Shown here piece after piece: positions 2,864 through 62,451 of a stretch of DNA of 64,000 nt. Each line of letters starts with the position of its first letter. Positions within the stretch are counted from its first letter, which is position 1. The notes under the pieces are model-generated. The model was not told the DNA's origin. It saw nothing but the letters and a program-made list of their open reading frames with translations, and ran no database searches. Both the position numbers and the translations under genes were made by a program. The DNA lies in the NCBI GenBank assembly GCA_965116495.1, contig OZ220696.1, positions 128,001-192,000 on the forward strand. Direction: 5' to 3'. This DNA is from Gammaproteobacteria bacterium (GTDB taxonomy: Bacteria; Pseudomonadota; Gammaproteobacteria; Eutrophobiales; Eutrophobiaceae).

Positions 2864-5800
2864 TTAATCCAGCCATCTTCTTGCATTATAGAACATCTGC
2901 ATCCACGGGCTATCGGTACCAGGCTGGTCCGTAGCAATCCAGGATAATTGTTGTGTCAGGAACACCCTTTCCGGGTGCGGCATCAGTATGGTAAAACGCC
3001 CGTCTGTACTGGTGAATCCAGTCAGGCCCCGGCTTGAGCCGTTGGGATTGGCCGGGTAGGTTTCCGTCACCTCTCCCCGGTTATCGACGTATCTCATGAC
3101 TGTCCCGGGCATGACTGTGGAAGCGTTTTGCCGGTCCCCGTTAAACACCGCCCGTCCTTCCCCGTGGGCAACCACGATGGGCATTTTTGATCCGGCCATG
3201 CCCTGGAAAAACAGGGAAGGGGAGTCGATGATCTCGACCATGACCACCCGGGATTCGAACTGCTCGGACCGGTTGCGCTCAAAGTCCGGCCAGTGGCCGG
3301 CGCCGGGTATGATACTGCGCAGGCGGGACAGCATCTGGCAGCCGTTACAGACGCCCAGGCCGAAGCTGCCGGTGCGCTTGAAGAAACGCTCGAATTCGTC
3401 CCTGAGGCGGTCGTTGTAGAGTATGGATTTTGCCCAGCCGCCGCCGGCGCCGAGGACGTCGCCGTAGGAAAAACCGCCGCAGGCCACCAGGCCGGTCAGC
3501 TTGTCCAGCGACGCAGACCGGGTTATCAGGTCATTCATATTGATATCGATGCAGTCAAATCCAGCACGATCAAACGCTGCGGCCATCTCGACGTGGCCGT
3601 TGACGCCCTGTTCCCGCAAAATACCCACGCAGGGCCTGGCAGTATTTATTCCCGTCACTATGTCGGGCTTGCCGGTACTGTTCGCGTTCGCCTTTCCGGG
3701 CTTGACCCGGAATCCAGTAGATAAGCCATCCATATTAGAGGAAGGTCGCTTTACTGGCTTCCCGCTTGCGCGGGAATGGTAAGGTGGACGTGTGGTCGGA
3801 GTGGAACTGACCTGATAAGTGGGCATGATTGACAAGCCTGGATCGGTGTCGTCCTGCAGACAGGCAAACTCCTCTTCAGCGCAGGCAGGATTATCCCGTA
3901 ATGCCTGTATATGGTACGAAGTCAGCGACCAGAGCCGGTGCAGTTGATTTATCCCGGCTGTGTAGACCACCTTGTCCCGGTGCCTGATGCGTATTTCGTT
4001 TTCCCCGTTCGGACTGGCGACTACCGACAGGCAGGCCTCGGGAAGGCCGGATTGTAGCAGTGTCTCCCGCGCCGTCTGTACGTGTTCCTTATGGACCTGC
4101 AGCACGATGCCGGGTTCTTCGTTGAACAGGAATGCCTGCAGGCCGGCGCTGCCGGTATGGATGTCCAGGCCGCAACGGCCGGCAAACGCCATTTCGCACA
4201 GGGTCGCGAACAAGCCCCCGTCCGAGCGATCATGGTACGCCAGGATATAGCCGGTTTCGTTCAGCAACTGGACCCCGTTGAAACAAGCTGTTAACAGGGC
4301 CGGGTCGTCCAGGTCGGGCGTGGCCAGGCCGGTCTGCCGGGTCACCTGCGCCAGGGCCGACCCCCCCAGGCGGTTCTTGCCCATGCCCAGGTCTATCAGC
4401 AACAGGGCGGTGTCATCCAATCTCCGGAGCCGGGGCGTCAGGGTCTTGCGGGTATCCGCAACGGGGGCATACGCGGTGACGTTCAGGGACACCGGCGCCG
4501 TCACCTGTTTGTTGCGGCCGTTTTGTGACCACGCCATGCTCATCGACATTGAATCCTTGCCTACCGGGATGGCTATGTGTAACTGCTGTGCCAGCGTCGA
4601 TACGGCCTCCACGGTGGCGTACAGGGCTGACTGCTGTGCCGGTTCGGCGCCGGCCGCCATCCAGTTTGCGGACAGGGCCACGTCCTCGAGGCGCAGGATG
4701 CGGCTGGAACAGATGTTGGTCAGGGCCTCCGCCACGGCCAGCCGTCCGGACGCCGGCGCATTACTGACTGCGACGGGCGGGCGTTCTCCCAGGGCCATGG
4801 CCTCGCCGGTAACGGCGCCGAACGAGGACGCACTGACTGCACAGTCCGCAACCGGGGTCTGCCACGGTCCCACCATCTGGTCACGCACCACCAGGCCGGA
4901 TACACTGCGGTCGCCGATGGTTATCAGGAAGCGTTTGTCGGATACGGCCGGTAGTTGCAGTACGCCGGAGATGGCCTCGGCCAGTGGAATGTCATGCAGC
5001 CTGCCGTTTCCCTGCGCGCCCGGGTATGCCTTTACCCGGAAGGACAGTCCCGGCGTTTTACCGAGTATCGTATCCAGGGGTACGTCGACGGGGTTTGCGC
5101 TGGACTGGTTATCGGTGACGACCAGCCGTCCGCTGTTATTCGTCTCGCCGATGATTGCATACGGGGCACGTTCCCGGTCGCACAGGGCGCCGAACAGCCC
5201 CACATTCTTTGCGGCGATGGCCAGGACGTATCTCTCCTGGGATTCATTGCACCATAATTCCATGGGTGACATACCCTGGTCTGCGCTATGGACTGCGCGC
5301 AGGTCAAACACGGCGCCCGTGTCGCGCTGGTGAACCAGTTCCGGCAGTGCATTGGACAGGCCGCCTGCGCCCACGTCATGGATCGACAGGATCGGGTTCG
5401 CCTCGCCCAGCGCCCAGCATTGATCAATGACTTCCTGGCAACGGCGCTGCATTTCCGCGTTATCTCTTTGCACGGACGCAAAGTCCAGTTCCTGCTTGCC
5501 GGCGCCGGCGGCCACGGAGGAAGCGGCGCCGCCGCCGAGGCCGATCAGCATGGCCGGGCCGCCCAGGGCGACGATCTTGCTACCCGCCGGCAGTGTATTT
5601 TTGTCGACATGGCCGGGGCGGATGACACCGTAGCCTCCGGCCAACATGATGGGTTTGTGGTAACCCCAGGCGGCGCCGGATGGGTTGCCGGCCTGTTCGA
5701 ACGTGCGGAAATAGCCGGCCAGGGCAGGGCGCCCGAATTCATTATTGTACGCCGCAGCGCCGATGGGTCCTTCCAGCATGATATCCAGGGGAGAGGCAAT

Positions 5801-52555: not shown

Positions 52556-54586
52556 CTACGCAGCCGGCTCGACAGGGTGCCGGTAACCGGTCACCCGGAA
52601 CTTGAACCTCTTGTCAGGACTGGTCTTGGGTAGCGGACTCAGTCTCAGTTTATAGTTCTTCGGCACCATTTCCAGTTCCAGGTGGCGGGCGAGCAGCAGC
52701 ACGTTGGCCGCCAATTGCAATTCGGTCCAGCGCGCCCCGCCACAGACGTGAGTGCCGACGCCGAATGGGGCATAGGCATTGGCCCCGGCGTGTTTATGCT
52801 CTTCACGGGGTTCCTTGTAGCGTGTGATATCGAACTTCTCAGGGTCCGGAAAGTGTTTTTCCATATAATGCATTGCCGGAAATACGACCATGATGTTGGA
52901 GTAGGAGGGTATGTGGTAACCCTCTACCTCAAAGGCGTTCATGGCAGTGCGCAAGTGCATCGGTATGATCGGATACAACCTCAACACCTCCATGATAAAA
53001 CGGTGGGTTACATCGATATTGCGCAGGGTGAAATCCGCGCCCGCCGGATCGCCATCGGCGAACAACGCATCCGCCTCGGCAACAATCTGCTCCCGGCAAT
53101 CCGGGTTGTTGAGCAGTTCGTAGATCGAAAAAGCCATTGCGCTGCCGGTGTAATGGCCGGCGATAATCGGTGCGATGAATGCGAAGCCCAGGTCCGTCTC
53201 CGGCAGGAACGCGGGGTCGGAATGGTGCAGTTCCATCAGGTCGTCCACCAGGTCGCGCCGTTTGCCTTCTCGTTGCGCGGGTGTGTGCGTGGCGTGGATC
53301 AGGTCATACAATTCGAGAACACGATTGCGGTAACGCTTCATCCTTGGCGTGTGCAGGGTGAGCTTCGGCAGAATGCGCATCACGTGGACCAGTAACGCTC
53401 GGTATTCGAACTTGAGCAGGTCGTCGAGGATTTCGGAGGCATCGATGCTCACGCTGAGCTGGGCAACCTGGTCGCCGATCATCCGCTGGCAGGCCATCTC
53501 GCCCGTTACCACCTGGCCGATTCCCCATTGTCCGTATGAACGCCGGGCAAGCGCTATCAGTTCATCCATCCGGTCTTCAACGACTTTACGGGAATTTCCT
53601 GCACGCATCGCCTTGCGCATGCGAAAATGTTCGGCTCCGCCCATGCTGGCGATGGAGCGGGCCGTTCCCCACTCGGATAGAAATTCCTCCAGGTAATCCC
53701 GGGTGCGCAGGAAATTACGGCCGTTTCTGCCGACCCACTGGTTCATCTCGGCGCTGGCCAGTACTACCATTTCCCGGCCCGGGATCTTGATTTTGAAAAC
53801 CGGCCCCAACTCCCCGGCTTTTTCCGCGATGAACTTGGGTATGTTTTTTTCCCAGAAGGCCCTCGATGAGAACATGTCCCGGATTCCGACTACCGGCAGG
53901 GTGCGGCCTGTGACCGCGCGCATGCTTTCCGGAGGCCGATAAGAACTGCGTACTGCATGTCCGATGGTCCTGCCGATCAGGTCCATGCCGCTGAACAGTT
54001 CGATGCGCTCCTCGGCGAGTTCAAACTCCTCGGGTTCCAGCATCGCGCGGAAACCGCCGCAGTTGTGCGTCAGGCCGATGATGCACATGTCGCGGGGATC
54101 GGGAATCTCGTCATCAAACAGGACGCGTATGATCCGGCCCTTGATTTCTTCACCGGTCCTGCCGTGCACCATGGGGTAGCGGCCGGAACGGGACACCTTG
54201 CCGGACAGGGTCCAGAAACCGCCGGCATCGGCTTCAAAAATGTTTTTTTGTACCAGGCGGTTAATTGCCGTTTCGTTAATCTTGTCGGCGTGCCTGGCGA
54301 TGCGTTCAACCCAGTGCTGTGGAGATTGCGTCTTTTCCTCCCGGGCGATTTCCTCAAGCGCGGGGTCCAACAACTCATCCTCGGTGGGAGTTGCATCGAC
54401 CAGGGTAAGCGTCTCCAAATCGGTGTCGATACGGTTATCCAGGGCGAGGTCCATGAGGACGCTACCGGCGAGCGCGCAGGACATTTTCCACTCCGGGATA
54501 GGAATGAAATAGCCGGAATCGTCACTGTGCAACAACAGGAGCAGTTCTTCAGCAAATCTCATGTCCGTTTTCTCTGATCGGGACAT
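52556..54586 (-). CDS. Fusion protein: N-terminal GPP34 (GOLPH3/Vps74-like) domain plus C-terminal cytochrome P450
   Basis: N-terminal ~210 aa: FAEELLLLL.D..G, ALAGSVLMDLALDNRI, DATPTEDELLDPAL, RLVQKNI, RYP, PDPRD. C-terminal: AGHYT I-helix, EVLR (ExxR), PEKFD, FGVGTHVCGG heme Cys. Single ORF with no internal stop. Confidence 0.85.
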   Translation of the reverse strand: MSRSEKTDMRFAEELLLLLHSDDSGYFIPIPEWKMSCALAGSVLMDLALDNRIDTDLETLTLVDATPTEDELLDPALEEIAREEKTQSPQHWVERIARHADKINETAINRLVQKNIFEADAGGFWTLSGKVSRSGRYPMVHGRTGEEIKGRIIRVLFDDEIPDPRDMCIIGLTHNCGGFRAMLEPEEFELAEERIELFSGMDLIGRTIGHAVRSSYRPPESMRAVTGRTLPVVGIRDMFSSRAFWEKNIPKFIAEKAGELGPVFKIKIPGREMVVLASAEMNQWVGRNGRNFLRTRDYLEEFLSEWGTARSIASMGGAEHFRMRKAMRAGNSRKVVEDRMDELIALARRSYGQWGIGQVVTGEMACQRMIGDQVAQLSVSIDASEILDDLLKFEYRALLVHVMRILPKLTLHTPRMKRYRNRVLELYDLIHATHTPAQREGKRRDLVDDLMELHHSDPAFLPETDLGFAFIAPIIAGHYTGSAMAFSIYELLNNPDCREQIVAEADALFADGDPAGADFTLRNIDVTHRFIMEVLRLYPIIPMHLRTAMNAFEVEGYHIPSYSNIMVVFPAMHYMEKHFPDPEKFDITRYKEPREEHKHAGANAYAPFGVGTHVCGGARWTELQLAANVLLLARHLELEMVPKNYKLRLSPLPKTSPDKRFKFRVTGYRHPVEPAA

Positions 54587-54847: not shown

Positions 54848-54960
54848 TGTATTATATAACCCGTTAATCTCCAGTGGTATTTGTTCAGGCAATTATCTCC
54901 CAGGATTGAAGATTCCGGCGTTTGGGGGGAATTTGACTATGGTCCTTGCGCCATTACGGC

Positions 54961-56151
54961 TCACATCGGTGATGCCTTGTTGCATATATATTGTCCGATA
55001 GGAATGGCAGACGTAGCTGCTGGAGAAGGTGCATTACAAACATGCAAGCTGCGCGAACTTTCAGCAAAAAGGAAATCATGTACCAGAGTGCCATCATTCA
55101 TTACAGCCTGAGCTCGAACACCGGCAGGATAGGGTAGCAGGTCATTTGATTTTAGTTGAGGACAATATTTTTGTACTTGTCGTAAATAGCCCGCTTTCCA
55201 AATTGAATTCCTGAATTCGTTCAGGCCTGATATCCAATTCCTGGATGCCAGTTTCCAAAATCCAGGGAATGAAAATGTATCTTTTATATCCTGAAGGTCA
55301 AAATTATATTTTCCATATCCTTCTCGTTCCCAGCCTAACACTGCGTTTGGCCCAACGACGACACCTCCATTAACAATGCGGGTGAGGTGGACTCCAAGGA
55401 AGGGTAGTGTCGGATCGGGTATCGGGTATATTAAACGCTCAATAAGATCATTTTTGTCAGAGGATAATCGATAATACTCACCTCGAAATGGAATAATCCT
55501 GAAATTTATACTCAATCCATGAAGAGTGGCAAGTCGATCCGCATTAAGACCCGCACAACAAATCAGAAAACCCGTCTTAAGTACATCTGAATCAGTGGTC
55601 ACCGTCACGAATTGATCGTTTTCTTCAAGTCCCAACACTCGCGCTGAGAGTCGCATTACCCCACCCAGGGCGCTGAATTGCTCTGCCATACGATTGCATA
55701 TCTGTTTATAATCGACAATGCCGGTTACAGGAACATGTAGCGCGCCAAGCCCGGTTATATTTGGTTCCATTTTCTGGAGGTCCTCTGCAGATACTCTTGT
55801 TGCTGCAATTCCATTTATTGCACAACGCTCGTAGAGAGAGTCCATACGGATTAATTCCTGCTCATCAGTCGCGACCAGCAATTTTCCACATTGTTCGAAA
55901 TCAATATTATTTTCACGACAAAAATCTGTCGTGGCGCTCACACCCTGTCTACAGAAATCAGCCTTGAGACTGCCGGGCTCATAGTAGATGCCGGCATGGA
56001 TTACGCCGCTATTGTGGCCGGTTTGGTGAGCCGCAAGGCGGTCTTCTTTTTCCAGGACGAGAATTTTTTTCCCTGGGTGACGGCTTTGTAATTGCCAGGC
56101 AGTCGATATGCCGATGATTCCGCCGCCAACTATAATATAGTCGTATTGCAT
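54961..56151 (-). CDS. lhgO: L-2-hydroxyglutarate oxidase family FAD oxidoreductase
   Basis: IVGGGIIG, HQTGHNSGVIHAGIYY, PFRGEY, PFLGVHLT, AGVRAQA, NAPSPAATS. Confidence 0.9.
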   Translation of the reverse strand: MQYDYIIVGGGIIGISTAWQLQSRHPGKKILVLEKEDRLAAHQTGHNSGVIHAGIYYEPGSLKADFCRQGVSATTDFCRENNIDFEQCGKLLVATDEQELIRMDSLYERCAINGIAATRVSAEDLQKMEPNITGLGALHVPVTGIVDYKQICNRMAEQFSALGGVMRLSARVLGLEENDQFVTVTTDSDVLKTGFLICCAGLNADRLATLHGLSINFRIIPFRGEYYRLSSDKNDLIERLIYPIPDPTLPFLGVHLTRIVNGGVVVGPNAVLGWEREGYGKYNFDLQDIKDTFSFPGFWKLASRNWISGLNEFRNSIWKAGYLRQVQKYCPQLKSNDLLPYPAGVRAQAVMNDGTLVHDFLFAESSRSLHVCNAPSPAATSAIPIGQYICNKASPM

Positions 56152-56199
56152 GCTAGGTTATTCACAGGAATTTACGTCGACGCTCTGTTTGATCTTCTA

Positions 56200-57450
56200 T
56201 TACTTCTTATCCCATGCCGGAAAAGGGCCCAACTTCAAACATAAAAAAATTGCAATTAATAACATGCCCGTGACGGCGAAAATACCCAGGTTATAATTTC
56301 CGAAAGTATCAAAAATAAATCCCAGGGCCAGGGGTCCCATGCTGGTTCCCACCATGAAAGCTGCGAACAGGTAGCCAAAAATTTCCCCCAGGTGTTTGAG
56401 GCCAAAATATCGGCTGACCAGGTAGGCAAGTAAATCTGTTTCGGCACCAACACCCAGACCAAAGAGAAAGGCGGACATGTAGAGTAGCAGCACGTGTGAA
56501 CTGAAAAACAGGATTACAATACCAAGCGTGGACAATAAGAAAAAAATGGCCGCCACATAAGGGCCAAAAAACCGATCGACAAGAAATCCACAACCAATAC
56601 GACCGACAATTATTGAAAAACCAACTACGGAAAACAAACGTGCAGCTAACAAGGAAGAAAAGCCCTTATCCTGCAGATAGGGTATGAAATGCGTAACAAT
56701 ACTGTGCAGCGCAAATGCAATGAGTAAAAAAATAACAATCAACAGCCAAAAGGTCGAAGTGGATGCTGCTTCCGGAACTGATGACCCTGAGTGGATGTCG
56801 ACCCTGGCGGAGGTCCCATGTTCGTTTGATTTTGCGCCATCGACCACCAGACCCATAGATTCAGGCGTCTCACGATGGACAAGACCGACAAGCAAAAACG
56901 TAACAGCAAATGAAATACAGGCAAGAGCAGGATACGTCAGGCGCCAACCGATTGTATTAACCAGGTACTGACTGAGCAGGGGAATGGTGGCGGCGCCCAC
57001 ACCGGTTCCGGACATGGCAATTCCCAATGTCAGCCCCCTTTGTTTGTTAAACCATGATGAAACTGTGCGGACATAACAAGCGACAACTGGTGAAGTGAAT
57101 ATACCAATGAGTGCGAATATAAGATAAAAGTACCAGATATTTGAGCTTAAAAAATATTGCGACGCGAAAATGAAAGAGAAGGCGCCTATGGTAGACAGTA
57201 AAATCGGGCGCACACCGATTCGATCAATTAACCTGCCTGCATAAGGTGTGCACACCGCAATCATCAGCGTTCCAATGGTGATTGCACCTGATACCTGTGC
57301 ACGGGACCAGTCAAATTCGCCAGTCAATACGCGCATGAAAACACCCAGGGTATAAAATGCGATAACAGCAGGGCTGACAGTCACCCCAATGCAACTCACA
57401 ACGACGATCCACCAGCCATAGAAGATTTTCGGCCCCTGCATCTCGCTCAT
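56200..57450 (-). CDS. MFS transporter (monocarboxylate/OFA-like)
   Basis: FYGWWIV, GRLIDRIG motif A, WFNKQRGLTLG; about 12 transmembrane helices. Confidence 0.92.
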   Translation of the reverse strand: MSEMQGPKIFYGWWIVVVSCIGVTVSPAVIAFYTLGVFMRVLTGEFDWSRAQVSGAITIGTLMIAVCTPYAGRLIDRIGVRPILLSTIGAFSFIFASQYFLSSNIWYFYLIFALIGIFTSPVVACYVRTVSSWFNKQRGLTLGIAMSGTGVGAATIPLLSQYLVNTIGWRLTYPALACISFAVTFLLVGLVHRETPESMGLVVDGAKSNEHGTSARVDIHSGSSVPEAASTSTFWLLIVIFLLIAFALHSIVTHFIPYLQDKGFSSLLAARLFSVVGFSIIVGRIGCGFLVDRFFGPYVAAIFFLLSTLGIVILFFSSHVLLLYMSAFLFGLGVGAETDLLAYLVSRYFGLKHLGEIFGYLFAAFMVGTSMGPLALGFIFDTFGNYNLGIFAVTGMLLIAIFLCLKLGPFPAWDKK

Positions 57451-57763
57451 CTGCGTGACTCCTTATCCAAAAAAGGATGAGTATACTTGATGGCGGGGTC
57501 CATCACTCCGATAACTAATGCAGAATCTCCCTTTATTGCCTGGTTGAGAACCAGTTGCCGTGCATAATACGCAGACTGGCGGATATTCCTGTTTAATTGA
57601 AATCCTGTCTATTTAGTATAAAATGTTTTAAATGAAATGATAGACAATATTATCGAATGAAAATATTTTATAAAGCAGTTCAATAGCCCTGTAAACCTCC
57701 ATGGAGTCTGGCTGGCATATTGAAGATAATGGTTCATAAATAAATAACAACCGGAGATATATC

Positions 57764-58147
57764 ATGAGTAGCAGAACACCCGAACAGGATGCGATTGAGG
57801 CATGTATTCAAAAATACACGGATGGAATCGCACAGCACGACACCGACCTGGTTGCTGAGGCTTTCCATCCACAGGCTATAATGAGTAGTCACAGGGGAGA
57901 TGATTTCTCGATAGTGCCCGCAGCTGAAACTATCGTTAATTACATGAAATCCATCCCGCCCATTTCAGAATCGAGCCCTGACTTTGCCGGGCGGGTAATA
58001 TCAGTTGACCAGAAAGAAACGATGGCGACTGCAATAATAGGTGAGGATGCACTGGAAGGGTTAAATTTTATTACTTATTTTCATTTACACAAGGTGGACG
58101 GCACCTGGTTAATTACCAGTAAGGCGACGTATGGAGAACCAATGTAA
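57764..58147 (+). CDS. NTF2/SnoaL-like (lumazine-binding-type) protein
   Basis: IQKYTDG..AFHPQA..TYFHLHKVDGTWLITSK; GGAG RBS upstream. Confidence 0.8.
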   Translation: MSSRTPEQDAIEACIQKYTDGIAQHDTDLVAEAFHPQAIMSSHRGDDFSIVPAAETIVNYMKSIPPISESSPDFAGRVISVDQKETMATAIIGEDALEGLNFITYFHLHKVDGTWLITSKATYGEPM

Positions 58148-58246
58148 TATTTGGGTAAAGTTCAGAAATTATGACCCCGATGCCAAAGCCCTGGCGCCGC
58201 AGCTTAAGGGACTTGACCCGCTTAATTTTTTTGGAGAGAGATATTA

Positions 58247-58879
58247 ATGGCAATTTTAAGATTATCAAACGGTGAAGTGTATGTAACCTATAAGGACATT
58301 AATAAGATTATAGCCCCTGCAGGGATGACAGTTGGTCGATTCCCGTACCCGGAAGCCCTTGAGGCCAAGGTGGCGGAAATGTCCAAGCCACTGACAAAGG
58401 AATCCTTGGATTTAGTGTTCGGCGAGATGGCATCGAGTGTAGAAGGGATACTGAAGGATGCGAACTATAGTTATGCTGCTTGTCGCGGCGCTGTCTATGT
58501 TCCACCGGAGACGAAAGGCGGTAAATGCGCTTTCTCCATGGCCTTGGCCGGCATGGAGGAACCGATGAATGCTGAGATGAATGAATCCGATACGAGTGAC
58601 TATAAACTCCCACACGTATTGCGTACAGATAATTGGCATTTCGCATTTGCAAGTGCCTTCGTAAAAGGAATGCAACTGGAGGGTGATTTGCAGGCCGTGA
58701 TATATGTGACCGCCGGAGAGTGGCAGCGCCTGGATTCCAATATACTTACCTGGGTTATTTTCACATTCGGTGAACCGGTTGTGGGACTTAGCTACTTTGC
58801 AGATGAACCAAACGCTCAAGGAAAATGGGAAACAGATGTGGCACCTGATCACGTTATCCTGGATACAATGAAGTTTTAG
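58247..58879 (+). CDS. Divergent acireductone-dioxygenase-like cupin
   Basis: MAILRLSNG..DI..IAP N-terminus and V.AGE....W....YF C-terminus resemble ARD-family proteins; metal ligands are degenerate. Confidence 0.55.
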   Translation: MAILRLSNGEVYVTYKDINKIIAPAGMTVGRFPYPEALEAKVAEMSKPLTKESLDLVFGEMASSVEGILKDANYSYAACRGAVYVPPETKGGKCAFSMALAGMEEPMNAEMNESDTSDYKLPHVLRTDNWHFAFASAFVKGMQLEGDLQAVIYVTAGEWQRLDSNILTWVIFTFGEPVVGLSYFADEPNAQGKWETDVAPDHVILDTMKF

Positions 58880-59079
58880 CAATTATTAAATGCGCAACCA
58901 ACTGTATGCTACTGAATTGACCATGATTGCCAATAAACCCGGCCGGCGTTTCTCAGGTGTACAGGGATTTTGCTTTCGCAGGCCCACAGCACATTGCAGA
59001 TTTTATTTCCAGGCCTCGCACCATTGGAGTACACATCGGCTATACCTACTAGAAATTGGCGCTTGCAGGAGAGAACGAT

Positions 59080-60222
59080 ATGACAGACAAGCCTATCGCC
59101 AAGCTGTTCACTGACGAGGAAATTCAGGGTATCCGTGAAGGCATTGACGGTGTCAAACGCGCCATACCCTCACGCTTTTACCACGATGAGGCGATCTATC
59201 ACTACGAAGTTGAACACCTGTTGAGGAAAAACTGGTTATGCGTGGGTCGCTGGGATCGGGTCGAACATCCGGGTGATTACTTCACCGTGAGGATGTGGCA
59301 AGAGTCGATTGTCATCGTTCGGGACAATGAAGGGGCTTTGCATGCCCTGGTTAATGTCTGCCAACATCGCTACACACAGGTGGTAGGAGATGGATGCGGC
59401 AACAGCAAGTTTTTTACCTGCCCTTATCATAGCTGGACCTATAACCTGGATGGTAGTTTACGCGGTGTTGCACTGGCTGAACTGCCAGGTTTTGATAAAA
59501 ATAAGTGCAGTATGCCAAAACTCAGGATTGAACAATGGCAGGGGTTTATTTTTATCAATTTTGACAGTGAGGCTAAACCCCTGGCGCCCCAAGTGGAAGC
59601 GGTCAACCCTCACTTTGAGGAATATAAGGTCTCCGAGTACAGGGAAAGAAACGCCGTCGACTACGAGGCCAACTGGAACTGGAAATTCTCGTTTGAAACC
59701 GGTTATGAAGGTTATCATCATTGTGGTCTTCACCGTGACCGCATTAATAATATCGTGCCGGGTAACAATACCAGGCCGCTGGATTTTGGCAAAGCTTGTG
59801 GATCCTACACGATGTGGATGAAAGACGATCCGGCCTTGAAGGAAAAAATGGAACAGCGCGAAAAAGACGGTTACCTGGGGCGGGATCCGAGCGCAAAATT
59901 CATTGGCATATATCCGAACCTGATTATATTCCTTAATTCTAAACAGGTAACGTATATCATCACCCAGCATCAAAAGGTTGATTTTAGTTATGCATCAACC
60001 CGACAGGCCTTTTCGCCAAAGATTTTAGCCCTGCCAAAAGCGGAAAAGGCCATTGCGGAACAGGATCAAAGCATGAGAGATACACAGGATGAAGACACAT
60101 ATGGATGTACCATGCTGCAAAAGGGAGTTAGTTCCCGGACAAACAGTACAGGGGTCATCCACCCACTGGAGCAACAACTAAATCACTATCATAACTGGTA
60201 CCTGGATCAACTTAACCAGTAA
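59080..60222 (+). CDS. Rieske non-heme iron oxygenase alpha subunit (CntA/choline monooxygenase-like)
   Basis: NVCQHR...CPYHSW [2Fe-2S] ligands, NWK...EGYHHCGLH and DED mononuclear Fe ligands. Confidence 0.92.
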   Translation: MTDKPIAKLFTDEEIQGIREGIDGVKRAIPSRFYHDEAIYHYEVEHLLRKNWLCVGRWDRVEHPGDYFTVRMWQESIVIVRDNEGALHALVNVCQHRYTQVVGDGCGNSKFFTCPYHSWTYNLDGSLRGVALAELPGFDKNKCSMPKLRIEQWQGFIFINFDSEAKPLAPQVEAVNPHFEEYKVSEYRERNAVDYEANWNWKFSFETGYEGYHHCGLHRDRINNIVPGNNTRPLDFGKACGSYTMWMKDDPALKEKMEQREKDGYLGRDPSAKFIGIYPNLIIFLNSKQVTYIITQHQKVDFSYASTRQAFSPKILALPKAEKAIAEQDQSMRDTQDEDTYGCTMLQKGVSSRTNSTGVIHPLEQQLNHYHNWYLDQLNQ

Positions 60223-60248
60223 TTCCACCTGTTAAACTCTAACAAATC

Positions 60249-61019
60249 ATGCAAGTAAAAAATCTAGCTGCAATTGTTACCGGTGGTGGTACCGGGATCG
60301 GTTTTGCGACGGCGAAGTTACTCAGTGATGAAGGAGCCAGGGTAACGATTCTCGGACGTAGGAAAGATGTCATTGAAAAAGCCGGGCAAGAGATCGGCGC
60401 GCTGGGAATATCCTGTGACATCAGTGATGAAAAGAGTACCGAAGCTGCGTTTAATCAGGCGACAGAGGCCCATGGGCCTGTACGGATCCTGGTAAATAGC
60501 GCCGCAGTAAGCCCGCAAAATCGACCCGTTGTCGATGATGCCGGCCCGGTTCCGCTGAACTGGTTTACTGACCTTGTCGCGATTAACCTTTCCGGTATTT
60601 TCAATACAACCCGTTTGGCAGCAGCTGAAATGCGCGACGCAAATGAGCTGGATGATAAGTCGCGAGGCGTCATTATTAATATCTCTTCGGTTTCCGGGCA
60701 CGATGGACCGACGGATAATATCGCTTACGTGGCTTCCAAGGGCGGCATAAACAGCATGACCCTGGCACTGGCTCGTGAATTTGGTCAATTTGCTGTGCGC
60801 GTTGTGACAATATCTCCCGGCCCTGTTGATACACCGTTGTCGAGAGAGAACGTACCACAGGAAATGTGGGATGCGCTTCCGCATGTTATGCCTTTTCCGA
60901 AAAGAGCGGCTGATCCCTCCGAGGTAGCACGAACGGTACTTCATGTCTGTGAACAAACCTATCTTAATGGTGAAATCATCCGCTTTGATGGTGGCTATCG
61001 TGTGCCGTTTATGAATTGA
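60249..61019 (+). CDS. Short-chain dehydrogenase/reductase (HSD10/3-hydroxyacyl-CoA dehydrogenase type 2-like)
   Basis: TGGGTGIG, RGVIINISS, YVASKGG, YLNGEIIRFDGG. Confidence 0.9.
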   Translation: MQVKNLAAIVTGGGTGIGFATAKLLSDEGARVTILGRRKDVIEKAGQEIGALGISCDISDEKSTEAAFNQATEAHGPVRILVNSAAVSPQNRPVVDDAGPVPLNWFTDLVAINLSGIFNTTRLAAAEMRDANELDDKSRGVIINISSVSGHDGPTDNIAYVASKGGINSMTLALAREFGQFAVRVVTISPGPVDTPLSRENVPQEMWDALPHVMPFPKRAADPSEVARTVLHVCEQTYLNGEIIRFDGGYRVPFMN

Positions 61020-61072
61020 GGCTTTGATGATGGGTATGATGTTGGGAAAAAGAATAGAGCAGGCATACTGAT

Positions 61073-62185
61073 ATGATAGATACATCACCGCTCGCTGTGC
61101 GGGATGACCTCAAATCGGCCTTGACCCAGGCCTGGTCGGAAGTGGCACAGACCGGCGCCTGGCTGAGCGGCGAACAACGTCTTGCAATCGCAAACGAAGC
61201 CCGCAACGCATGGCAATGCAAACTCTGCCAACGGCGCAAGGAAGCCCTGTCGCCCTATACCATCGAAGGCGATCATGATCACCTTGGTGCGCTCCCCGAT
61301 GCCTGGATCGAGGCGGTACACCGGATAGTTACCGACTCCGGCCGCATCACTGAGAGTTGGTACGATGCAACCATCGCTGCCGGTATCATTGAAGATGAGT
61401 TCATCGAACTGCTGAGTCTCGTTACAATTGTCACCGGGGCGGACACCTTCATGCGTGCTATCGGGCTCCCACCACTGGTGTTGCCCGCAACAGGGGAACA
61501 AGGCACACCGCCACGAAGGCGACCGGGCGGCGCAAAGACAGGGCCGGGATGGGCGCCAACTATTGCTCCGGAAGACGCCGGCCCCGAACTTGGCGGTTTT
61601 TATGAGACAGGCCCCGCCGCCTATATTCGACGTGCGCTGACCCTGGTTCCCGGCGAAGCAAACCGTTTCTGGCCGCTTTTGAACCAGCTTTACCTGGGTA
61701 ATCCTATGAGAGTTGAGCTCGAGGGTGTCGAGCGCGCAATCTCGCGGGCGCAGATGGAATTCATTGCGACCCGCACCTCGGCCTATCTCGACTGTTTTTA
61801 CTGAACTGCCAGTCATGCAATGCGGCTCAGTTTGAGTGGCGAACATACCGGCGACGAGTACGCGCTTATAGATGCGGTCGGTAAAGGCACAGGGGACAGC
61901 GGCCTGCCCCGGGGAGAGCTTCTCAACGACTTTGTCGAGGCTGTCTGCGCAGGTGATGGCGCGCGCACGGCAGCAGTCCGGCAAAAAATCATCGAAGAGA
62001 TGGGTGAGGCGGCGATAATAGATGCCGCGGCGGTCATCGCAGCATTTAACTGTTACCCGCGCGTTGCCGATGCTACGGGCATCCCCCTGGAGGAAGCCAA
62101 GGCGGCTGCAACCGAAGCCATGCGCGCCGAACTGGGTCTGGATGAGCTTGATGCTCGCAAAAAACCTGGTGAGAAGTGGTCCTGA
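61073..62185 (+). CDS. AhpD/CMD-like protein, probable selenoprotein (Sec at TGA 61802-61804; 370 aa)
   Basis: ORFs 61073-61804 and 61820-62185 are in the same frame. Read-through gives ISRAQMEFIATRTSAYLDCFY-U-TASHAMRL, the AhpD CxxC-xxx-H motif. A hairpin follows the TGA. Confidence 0.8.
61808..61852 (+). promoter_or_regulatory. Putative bacterial SECIS element
   Basis: Lower stem gccagtcatg/cataccggc, upper stem gcggctca/tgagtggc, apical loop GUU with the G 26 nt after the UGA. Confidence 0.65.
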
Positions 62186-62254
62186 TGCCACCCTTCCTTA
62201 TGTTCACCGGATAAATTCACAGGGTACAGATCCTGCCTATTCAAGTCTTATGAA

Positions 62255-62331
62255 TGGTCGGGGTGAGAGGATTTGAACCTCCGGCCCCTGCCTCCCGAAG
62301 GCAGTGCTCTACCAGGCTGAGCTACACCCCG
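62255..62331 (-). tRNA. tRNA-Pro (anticodon CGG)
   Basis: Reverse complement CGGGGTGTAGCTCAGCCTGGTAGAGCACTGCCTTCGGGAGGCAGGGGCCGGAGGTTCAAATCCTCTCACCCCGACCA, 77 nt with encoded CCA. Confidence 0.98.
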
Positions 62332-62451
62332 ATATGGAAATACAGAAAGACCGGCAGACTGGTTAACCCCGTCTGCCGGTTGCAAGTGCGAACTCTACCT
62401 TACAATGGGCTTTGCGTCTACAACCCGATGGGGTCGTACCCTAATCCTGAC

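Follow-up and report, generated by a model that had tools for sequence, protein, structure and literature searches.

Organization of the locus

Close to the end of the window, the 64,000-nucleotide stretch of gammaproteobacterial DNA analysed here, two reading frames adjoin one another in a way that almost certainly makes them one gene, coding for a single selenoprotein in which UGA is predicted to be read as selenocysteine (Sec; Table 1). The preliminary description had drawn attention to the arrangement, and the sequence bears it out. ORF1 (61073–61804) stops at a TGA immediately after Cys-Phe-Tyr; ORF2, from ATG 61820, is in the same frame (offset 747 nt, or 249 codons); and the codons between the TGA and this ATG, T-A-S-H-A, are free of stops. 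Judged by eye, the 24 nt preceding ATG 61820 contain no AGGA/GGAG-type ribosome-binding site, again as described, and AGCAGG lies ~9 nt 5' of ATG 61073. With the TGA read as Sec, the product has 370 residues and gains the CxxU-x3-H motif that had been foreseen, C241-F-Y-U244-T-A-S-H248. A promoter scan of 60900–62400 returned no sites.

Table 1. Features of the selenoprotein gene, in window coordinates
Feature	Position	Strand	Basis
One gene, from its ATG to the final TGA stop, encoding an AhpD-related selenoprotein of 370 aa (NF041238)	61073..62185	+	427 bits against a cut-off of 175; pLDDT 90, pTM 0.91
C49-x-x-C52 motif of the N-terminal AhpD repeat; H68 and H83 near-invariant	61217..61321	+	Candidate Cys2His2 zinc site; conservation and repeat alignment
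Active-site helix pair of the C-terminal AhpD repeat: E229, C241, Y243, U244, H248	61757..61816	+	Relay spacing, as described in PMC3141380, and conservation
In-frame UGA, predicted Sec244 within C241-F-Y-U244-T-A-S-H248	61802..61804	+	TGA in 38/38 distinct loci; Cys in 27/30 full-length homologues
Predicted bacterial SECIS hairpin	61807..61853	+	Upper stem 61821–61841 conserved; loop G-U 61830–61831; fits published model
True stop codon, TGA in the window copy	62183..62185	+	Locus rows

The TGA is no assembly slip of this copy, since a contig from a public run, possibly the run of the source sample itself, matches 60900–62282 with 0 differences. Contigs from the RNA libraries of two studies span the UGA in relatives of ~91–92% identity (X1, 61747–62104; X3, 61508–62054). 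We do not count these as support, because they represent other strains, might contain DNA, and reveal neither the strand nor any read-through.

The genes around the selenoprotein gene are not conserved, and they indicate no partner peroxiredoxin. Between the gene and the usual upstream region sits a block of ~6.2 kb (54880–61053) with a GC content of 43–50%, against 56–63% in the flanks. It carries six genes: an L-2-hydroxyglutarate oxidase (over cut-off), an MFS transporter, a lumazine-binding-like protein, an unknown protein of 210 aa, a Rieske oxygenase alpha subunit, and an SDR. In five relatives (L001–L004 and L010), the counterpart of window position ~54879 comes ~30 nt before the match to 61054–61060, and the block looks like a recent insertion that cut the gene off from the DNA natively preceding it. 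Because the block is present in none of 12 related loci, the Rieske oxygenase and SDR are uninformative about function, and an operon with them, considered as a functional clue, was rejected.

Further upstream, at 52556–54586 on the minus strand, is a cytochrome P450-like protein of 676 aa, conserved in relatives, with an N-terminal extension of ~230 residues, the start of which presumably resembles a GPP34/GOLPH3-type domain. In five relatives, the P450 and selenoprotein genes have a Rieske-type gene of ~355 aa between them (in L001 at 3810–4871, minus strand); in the window, ~900 nt of this gene are missing at ~54715. On the other side, 70 nt after the selenoprotein gene, is a tRNA-Pro(CGG) (62255–62331, minus strand). 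The stretch from gene to tRNA to ispB varies in length among loci L001–L010, and transposase-like ORFs occur near several loci, a pattern that an insertion hot spot would give.

Family membership

The read-through product belongs to NCBIfam family NF041238, AhpD_rel_CFYUT, the 'alkylhydroperoxidase-related (seleno)protein', which it matches at 427.2 bits (cut-off 175) over model positions 1–355 of 357. ORF1 alone covers positions 1–238 of the model, and positions 240–355 are matched by the frame downstream of the TGA. The C-x-Y-U/C-T active-site motif of the family is present as C241-F-Y-U244-T, and the window protein shares with the family the full-length match, the CFYUT motif, the CxxU, and a single Sec. 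We see no difference at the family level, other than that the window copy falls in a clade of short proteins (370 aa) without the C-terminal tail of ~25 residues found in the paralogue clades. The protein is related to TIGR01926 (peroxidase-related enzyme) but is not a member, scoring 44.8 bits against a cut-off of 81.8.

That CxxU AhpD-like selenoproteins exist, as the preliminary description stated, is correct: NF041238 is a curated family, and a 2026 review (PMC13188914) traces its report as a selenoprotein family to 2005. A table in that review equates NF041238 with 'hypothetical protein 1' of the Sargasso Sea selenoproteome, an equation that rests on the review. As described in the 2005 paper (PMC1088965), hypothetical protein 1 comprised four Sec sequences; it had Cys homologues, a SECIS was predicted for it, and the account given of it there includes no functional evidence. 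The 370-aa form, N-terminal CxxC included, is therefore already a curated family, and the window gene is neither a new recoding event nor a new family but an additional member of NF041238. The length first proposed for the protein stands; the idea that its N-terminal CKLC is 'extra' does not, for the domain is duplicated and CKLC is the AhpD motif of the other copy.

Homologues and the in-frame TGA

TGA occupies the Sec position in all 42 family locus rows, 38 of them distinct; these include the window locus and its paralogue but none of the 13 loci retrieved for their sel genes or as weak matches. At the true stop, 18 of the 42 rows have TAA (11) or TAG (7) and the rest TGA, one row ending with its contig. 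In orthologues, the C-terminal half is conserved like the N-terminal half, at 86–93% vs 89–94%.

Judged by where the proteins end, 96 of the closest 100 database proteins terminate at C-x-Y, two continue with C-F-Y-C, and two are aberrant, so that the misannotation as split or truncated proteins that had been predicted is the usual fate of these genes. Among the best 150 of 1512 distant representatives (E <= 0.001), again going by protein end points, 94 terminate at C-x-[YFW], 30 continue, and 26 end elsewhere. Cys homologues, which the preliminary description suggested looking for, are found among the 30 that continue: 27 have Cys at residue 244, two have Gly and one has Leu, and His248 is present in 29. 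The UGA thus aligns with a Cys of homologues in a frame that is conserved on both sides, as expected of a bacterial selenoprotein. In three full-length homologues (P0106, P0166 and P0243) the Sec is replaced by Gly, Gly or Leu, and in two of them C241 is also replaced by Ser; by their sequences, these are apparently inactive members of the family. In a FastTree tree of 115 rows, Cys forms are interspersed among truncated forms, with 16 changes, four of them forced by starred branches; support is too weak for the tree to give the direction of Sec/Cys change.

Might the locus hold two separate genes instead, one for 243 aa and one for 121 aa, whose translation is coupled, or a pseudogene in which a Cys codon has mutated to a stop? 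ORF2 does possess an in-frame ATG, at 61820, and the 243-aa form does appear in databases. The in-frame Met is not a fixed feature, however, being found at +6 in one clade, at +7 in another, and not at all in a third, and separate genes would cut the motif between its Cys and its His. A stray nonsense mutation accords poorly with a catalytic position that is TGA, and never TAA or TAG, in every one of the distinct loci, down to ~35% protein identity; nor was a change of frame, another sign against read-through that the preliminary description named, seen among them. The downstream frame, moreover, is conserved, and full-length Cys forms are scattered across the tree. We consider two genes, or a pseudogene, extremely improbable, and treat the two frames as one gene.

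The SECIS hairpin

The hairpin placed at 61808–61852 in the preliminary description folds as proposed (RNAfold, 61807–61853, -17.1 kcal/mol), with the apical loop GUU, the G of which, G61830, is the 26th base after the UGA. The bacterial SECIS consensus set out in PMC13188914 comprises a loop of 3–9 nt, G in the first two loop positions, a spacer of 16–37 nt, a stem of 4–16 bp, and a free energy of <= -7.5 kcal/mol, and the window hairpin, with its GUU loop and 25-nt spacer, conforms. Stability alone is not proof of a SECIS, and we reject it as such: the z-score is -1.35, 22 of 200 shuffles fold as well, and the version of the rule used here passes 12% (62/500) of sampled TGA stops of long ORFs in the source genome, along with 54/500 TAA and 69/500 TAG stops. 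Chance could produce such a hairpin, so support for it comes from conservation.

G-U is found in the loop at +26/+27 in 42/42 locus rows (38 distinct). Across 30 distinct rows, 95% of the cells in the upper stem are paired, vs 72% in the lower stem, and RNAalifold recovers the upper stem only. Taken alone the upper stem has a z-score of -3.2, for a stem chosen after the fact. Two of its pairs have changed on both sides, one appearing as A-U, C-G and G-C, and its double-changed cells number 18 vs 7.2 after shuffling, a count reached by none of 500 shuffles and far above that of slid controls. Two of the five covariation measures (pair and pair-type counts) are at shuffle level (352/500 and 358/500), and the compensatory changes represent few events, because they mostly separate a few clades. 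At stem codons of the paralogue clade (15 sequences), synonymous differences fall to 8%, vs 35% elsewhere, with none of 315 windows as low; in the clade of the window protein (10 sequences) they are 8% vs 16%, with 46 of 325 windows as low, which is not significant. No Rfam family matches over the SECIS; tRNA-Sec and a tRNA were the sole matches in the three loci scanned.

Selenium machinery and distribution

The source genome, which is 99.5% complete, has the full set of Sec genes—selA, selB, selC and selD—whose presence had been put forward as a check. SelA (597 bits), selB (273 bits, with in-frame neighbours) and selD (305 bits) all score above cut-off, and tRNA-Sec (selC, 78.5 bits) is directly 3' of selB. 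SelD is a fusion protein with its C-G-G-C-G-S-K motif intact. A selenium cluster (L056; G000:C1:376009–383665) includes the gene for this oxidoreductase-SelD fusion, the selenoneine genes senB (TIGR04348, 417 bits) and senA (NF041186, 483 bits), and selA, and from its gene content the organism likely makes selenoneine besides selenoproteins.

A second TGA-split NF041238 copy is present in the same genome (G000:C1:407601–408659). This paralogue (locus L025; G000:C1:407502–408695, minus strand) is ~35% identical to the window protein and has the stronger SECIS (z -2.64). Copies of the paralogue clade lie <=500 nt from selA in 11 of 18 genomes, the only recurring neighbourhood link that we find; in the source genome the two are 24 kb apart.

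NF041238 occurs in 19 of 61 related genomes, all of one genus, which can have up to three divergent paralogues per genome; each of the 36 matches listed in them has exactly one TGA. Of the 19 genomes with NF041238, 18 have a selA match; of the other 42, none does. The exception, G407, the sole genome with NF041238 but no selA match, is 88% complete and in 760 contigs, and four members of the genus that do not have NF041238 have no selA match either. This co-occurrence is supporting but not independent, because the genomes concerned are kin, all within one genus. A phylum-wide sample of 400 other genomes yielded no match to the family and so gave no independent test of co-occurrence.

Fold, duplication and active site

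The AlphaFold2 model of the full-length protein, built from 108 sequences, is all-helical, with a pLDDT of 90 and pTM of 0.91; a single-sequence fold of the 243-aa fragment has a pLDDT of 41. Foldseek gave no match at E <= 0.001, and the ESM Atlas gave hypothetical-protein clusters with CMD and nothing else. Residues 156–349 of the model, the C-terminal repeat, superpose on AhpD-like proteins (TIGR01926; 6k40, 2prr, 2oyo, 3c1l, 2pfx; PA0269; M. tuberculosis AhpD) at Z 13–13.6 at best: 6k40 scores 13.6, 2prr 13.5, S. pneumoniae AhpD 12.7, Bmp8 12.3, and M. tuberculosis AhpD 9.2. Over the whole chain, the best structural match is human Sestrin2, with a Z of 17.5 and an rmsd of 3.3 over 238 residues at 13% identity; unrelated rows of the comparison extend down to Z 4.

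When the profile of residues 5–140 is aligned with that of residues 183–345, 105 columns match with a probability of 62% and an E of 7.7e-5, against at most 2.6% for 20 column-shuffled controls, and the alignment sets C49-x-x-C52 on C241-x-x-U244. Together with the fold matches, this alignment of the two halves makes the protein a duplicated AhpD unit, two AhpD repeats being predicted in the one chain.

AhpD-like enzymes have a five-residue proton relay, described as E36, C48, Y50, C51 and H55 in PA0269, and as E118, C130, H132, C133 and H137 in M. tuberculosis AhpD (PMC3141380; PMC6300522). The spacing of the relay in the C-terminal repeat of the window protein is identical to both, and the repeat has the E-x11-C-x-Y/H-C-x3-H helix-turn-helix of AhpD-like oxidoreductases. 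The window protein differs from these enzymes in being twice as long, in carrying a second repeat in the chain, and in having Sec for the second Cys.

In AhpD, the second Cys is the attacking one, hence Sec244 would be the nucleophile. The scheme we envisage begins at translation: SelB and Sec-tRNA would bind the hairpin that closely follows the UGA, at its G-U loop, and Sec244 would be inserted. In the folded protein, the E229–H248 relay of the C-terminal repeat would activate the Sec244 selenolate, which would then attack peroxide or a partner's disulfide. Cys241 would resolve the adduct, leaving a C241–U244 selenenylsulfide for a cellular reductant to re-reduce. The N-terminal repeat would stand in for the second subunit of the AhpD dimer, as in sestrins, and having lost the relay residues, might hold a structural or sensing zinc through C49, C52, H68 and H83. 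Peroxide or disulfide reduction of the AhpD type is, we think, the likely chemistry, predicted as it is from fold and active-site residues; that the protein is a selenoprotein and a two-domain AhpD-fold thiol/selenol oxidoreductase of NF041238, we regard as highly probable.

The N-terminal repeat and other possible chemistries

Among ~146 aligned homologues, C49 (139/145), C52 (143/146), H68 (143/145) and H83 (144/147) are 96–99% conserved. The relay Glu, Tyr and His are missing from this repeat, the Glu slot being V/L/I in 129 of 145 sequences and the His slot K/R. Retention of the two cysteines and two histidines and loss of the relay residues suggest a Cys2His2 zinc site, a candidate on which, from conservation, we are evenly divided. 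C49-x-x-C52 could be a second redox centre that passes electrons to C241–U244, as in paired-dithiol enzymes, with no metal site at all. It is near-invariant, after all, and its place in the helix-turn-helix is that of the catalytic CxxU, but the hydrophobic Glu slot and basic His slot do not suit such a relay, and the distant H68 and H83, as invariant as the cysteines, suit a Cys2His2 metal site. We think electron transfer of this kind somewhat unlikely.

The other doubt concerns the C-terminal repeat. Bmp8, a debrominase, has the AhpD fold in common with the window protein (6ohi and 6ohj match the model, Z 12.3) and resembles deiodinases. An AhpD fold with other chemistry, such as reductive dehalogenation of halogenated aromatics, with Sec as in deiodinases, would be in keeping with this, as with the three divergent paralogues that a genome can have, which suggest distinct substrates. 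Bmp8 ranks level with several uncharacterised peroxidase-related proteins, however, and below 6k40; a shared fold is no proof of function, and conserved gene context pointing to halogenated substrates is absent. Bmp8, moreover, is a single domain and uses Cys only, and there is no sign of a common substrate. Dehalogenation is improbable in our view, and reductase chemistry of the AhpD type is the reading that we carry forward.

Resemblance to sestrins

Sestrin2 is described as a duplicated AhpD-like unit (PMC4674687). Other bacterial fused AhpD dimers have been described too (PMC11429811), in passages that do not name NF041238. Like sestrins (5t0n, 5dj4) and these fused dimers, the window protein has two AhpD-like domains per chain, one of them specialised. 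The catalytic motif of Sestrin2 is in the N-terminal repeat, whereas that of the window protein is in the C-terminal repeat, and Sestrin2 has a single Cys where the window protein has the dyad CxxU. Sestrins are reported to have an acidic DDYDY hinge in place of the C-terminal active-site helix (PMC11429811); the C-terminal repeat of the window protein retains its CxxU helix, and neither by sequence nor by the hinge is the protein a sestrin. None of 34 NF041238 members has a Pfam sestrin match. We rate a separate fusion event no less likely than common ancestry.

It is tempting to view NF041238 proteins as sestrin-like AhpD pseudo-dimers in which a Sec redox repeat is joined to a Cys2His2 zinc repeat, as a redox/metal switch on a selenoenzyme. 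We offer this tentatively and think it rather unlikely. We found no link in the literature between sestrins and NF041238 selenoproteins, and NCBI's comment on the family may already note the duplication.

Significance

Reading the TGA as Sec corrects a systematic error of annotation, one that cuts all but four of the 100 closest database homologues at the UGA. It also adds to the family a genus with one to three NF041238 copies per genome, and selA. The interest of the gene is otherwise biochemical, the duplicated fold and candidate zinc site giving concrete residues with which to approach its function. If the switch proposed above is real, NF041238 would parallel the two-function architecture of sestrins in bacteria, and with the use of selenium.
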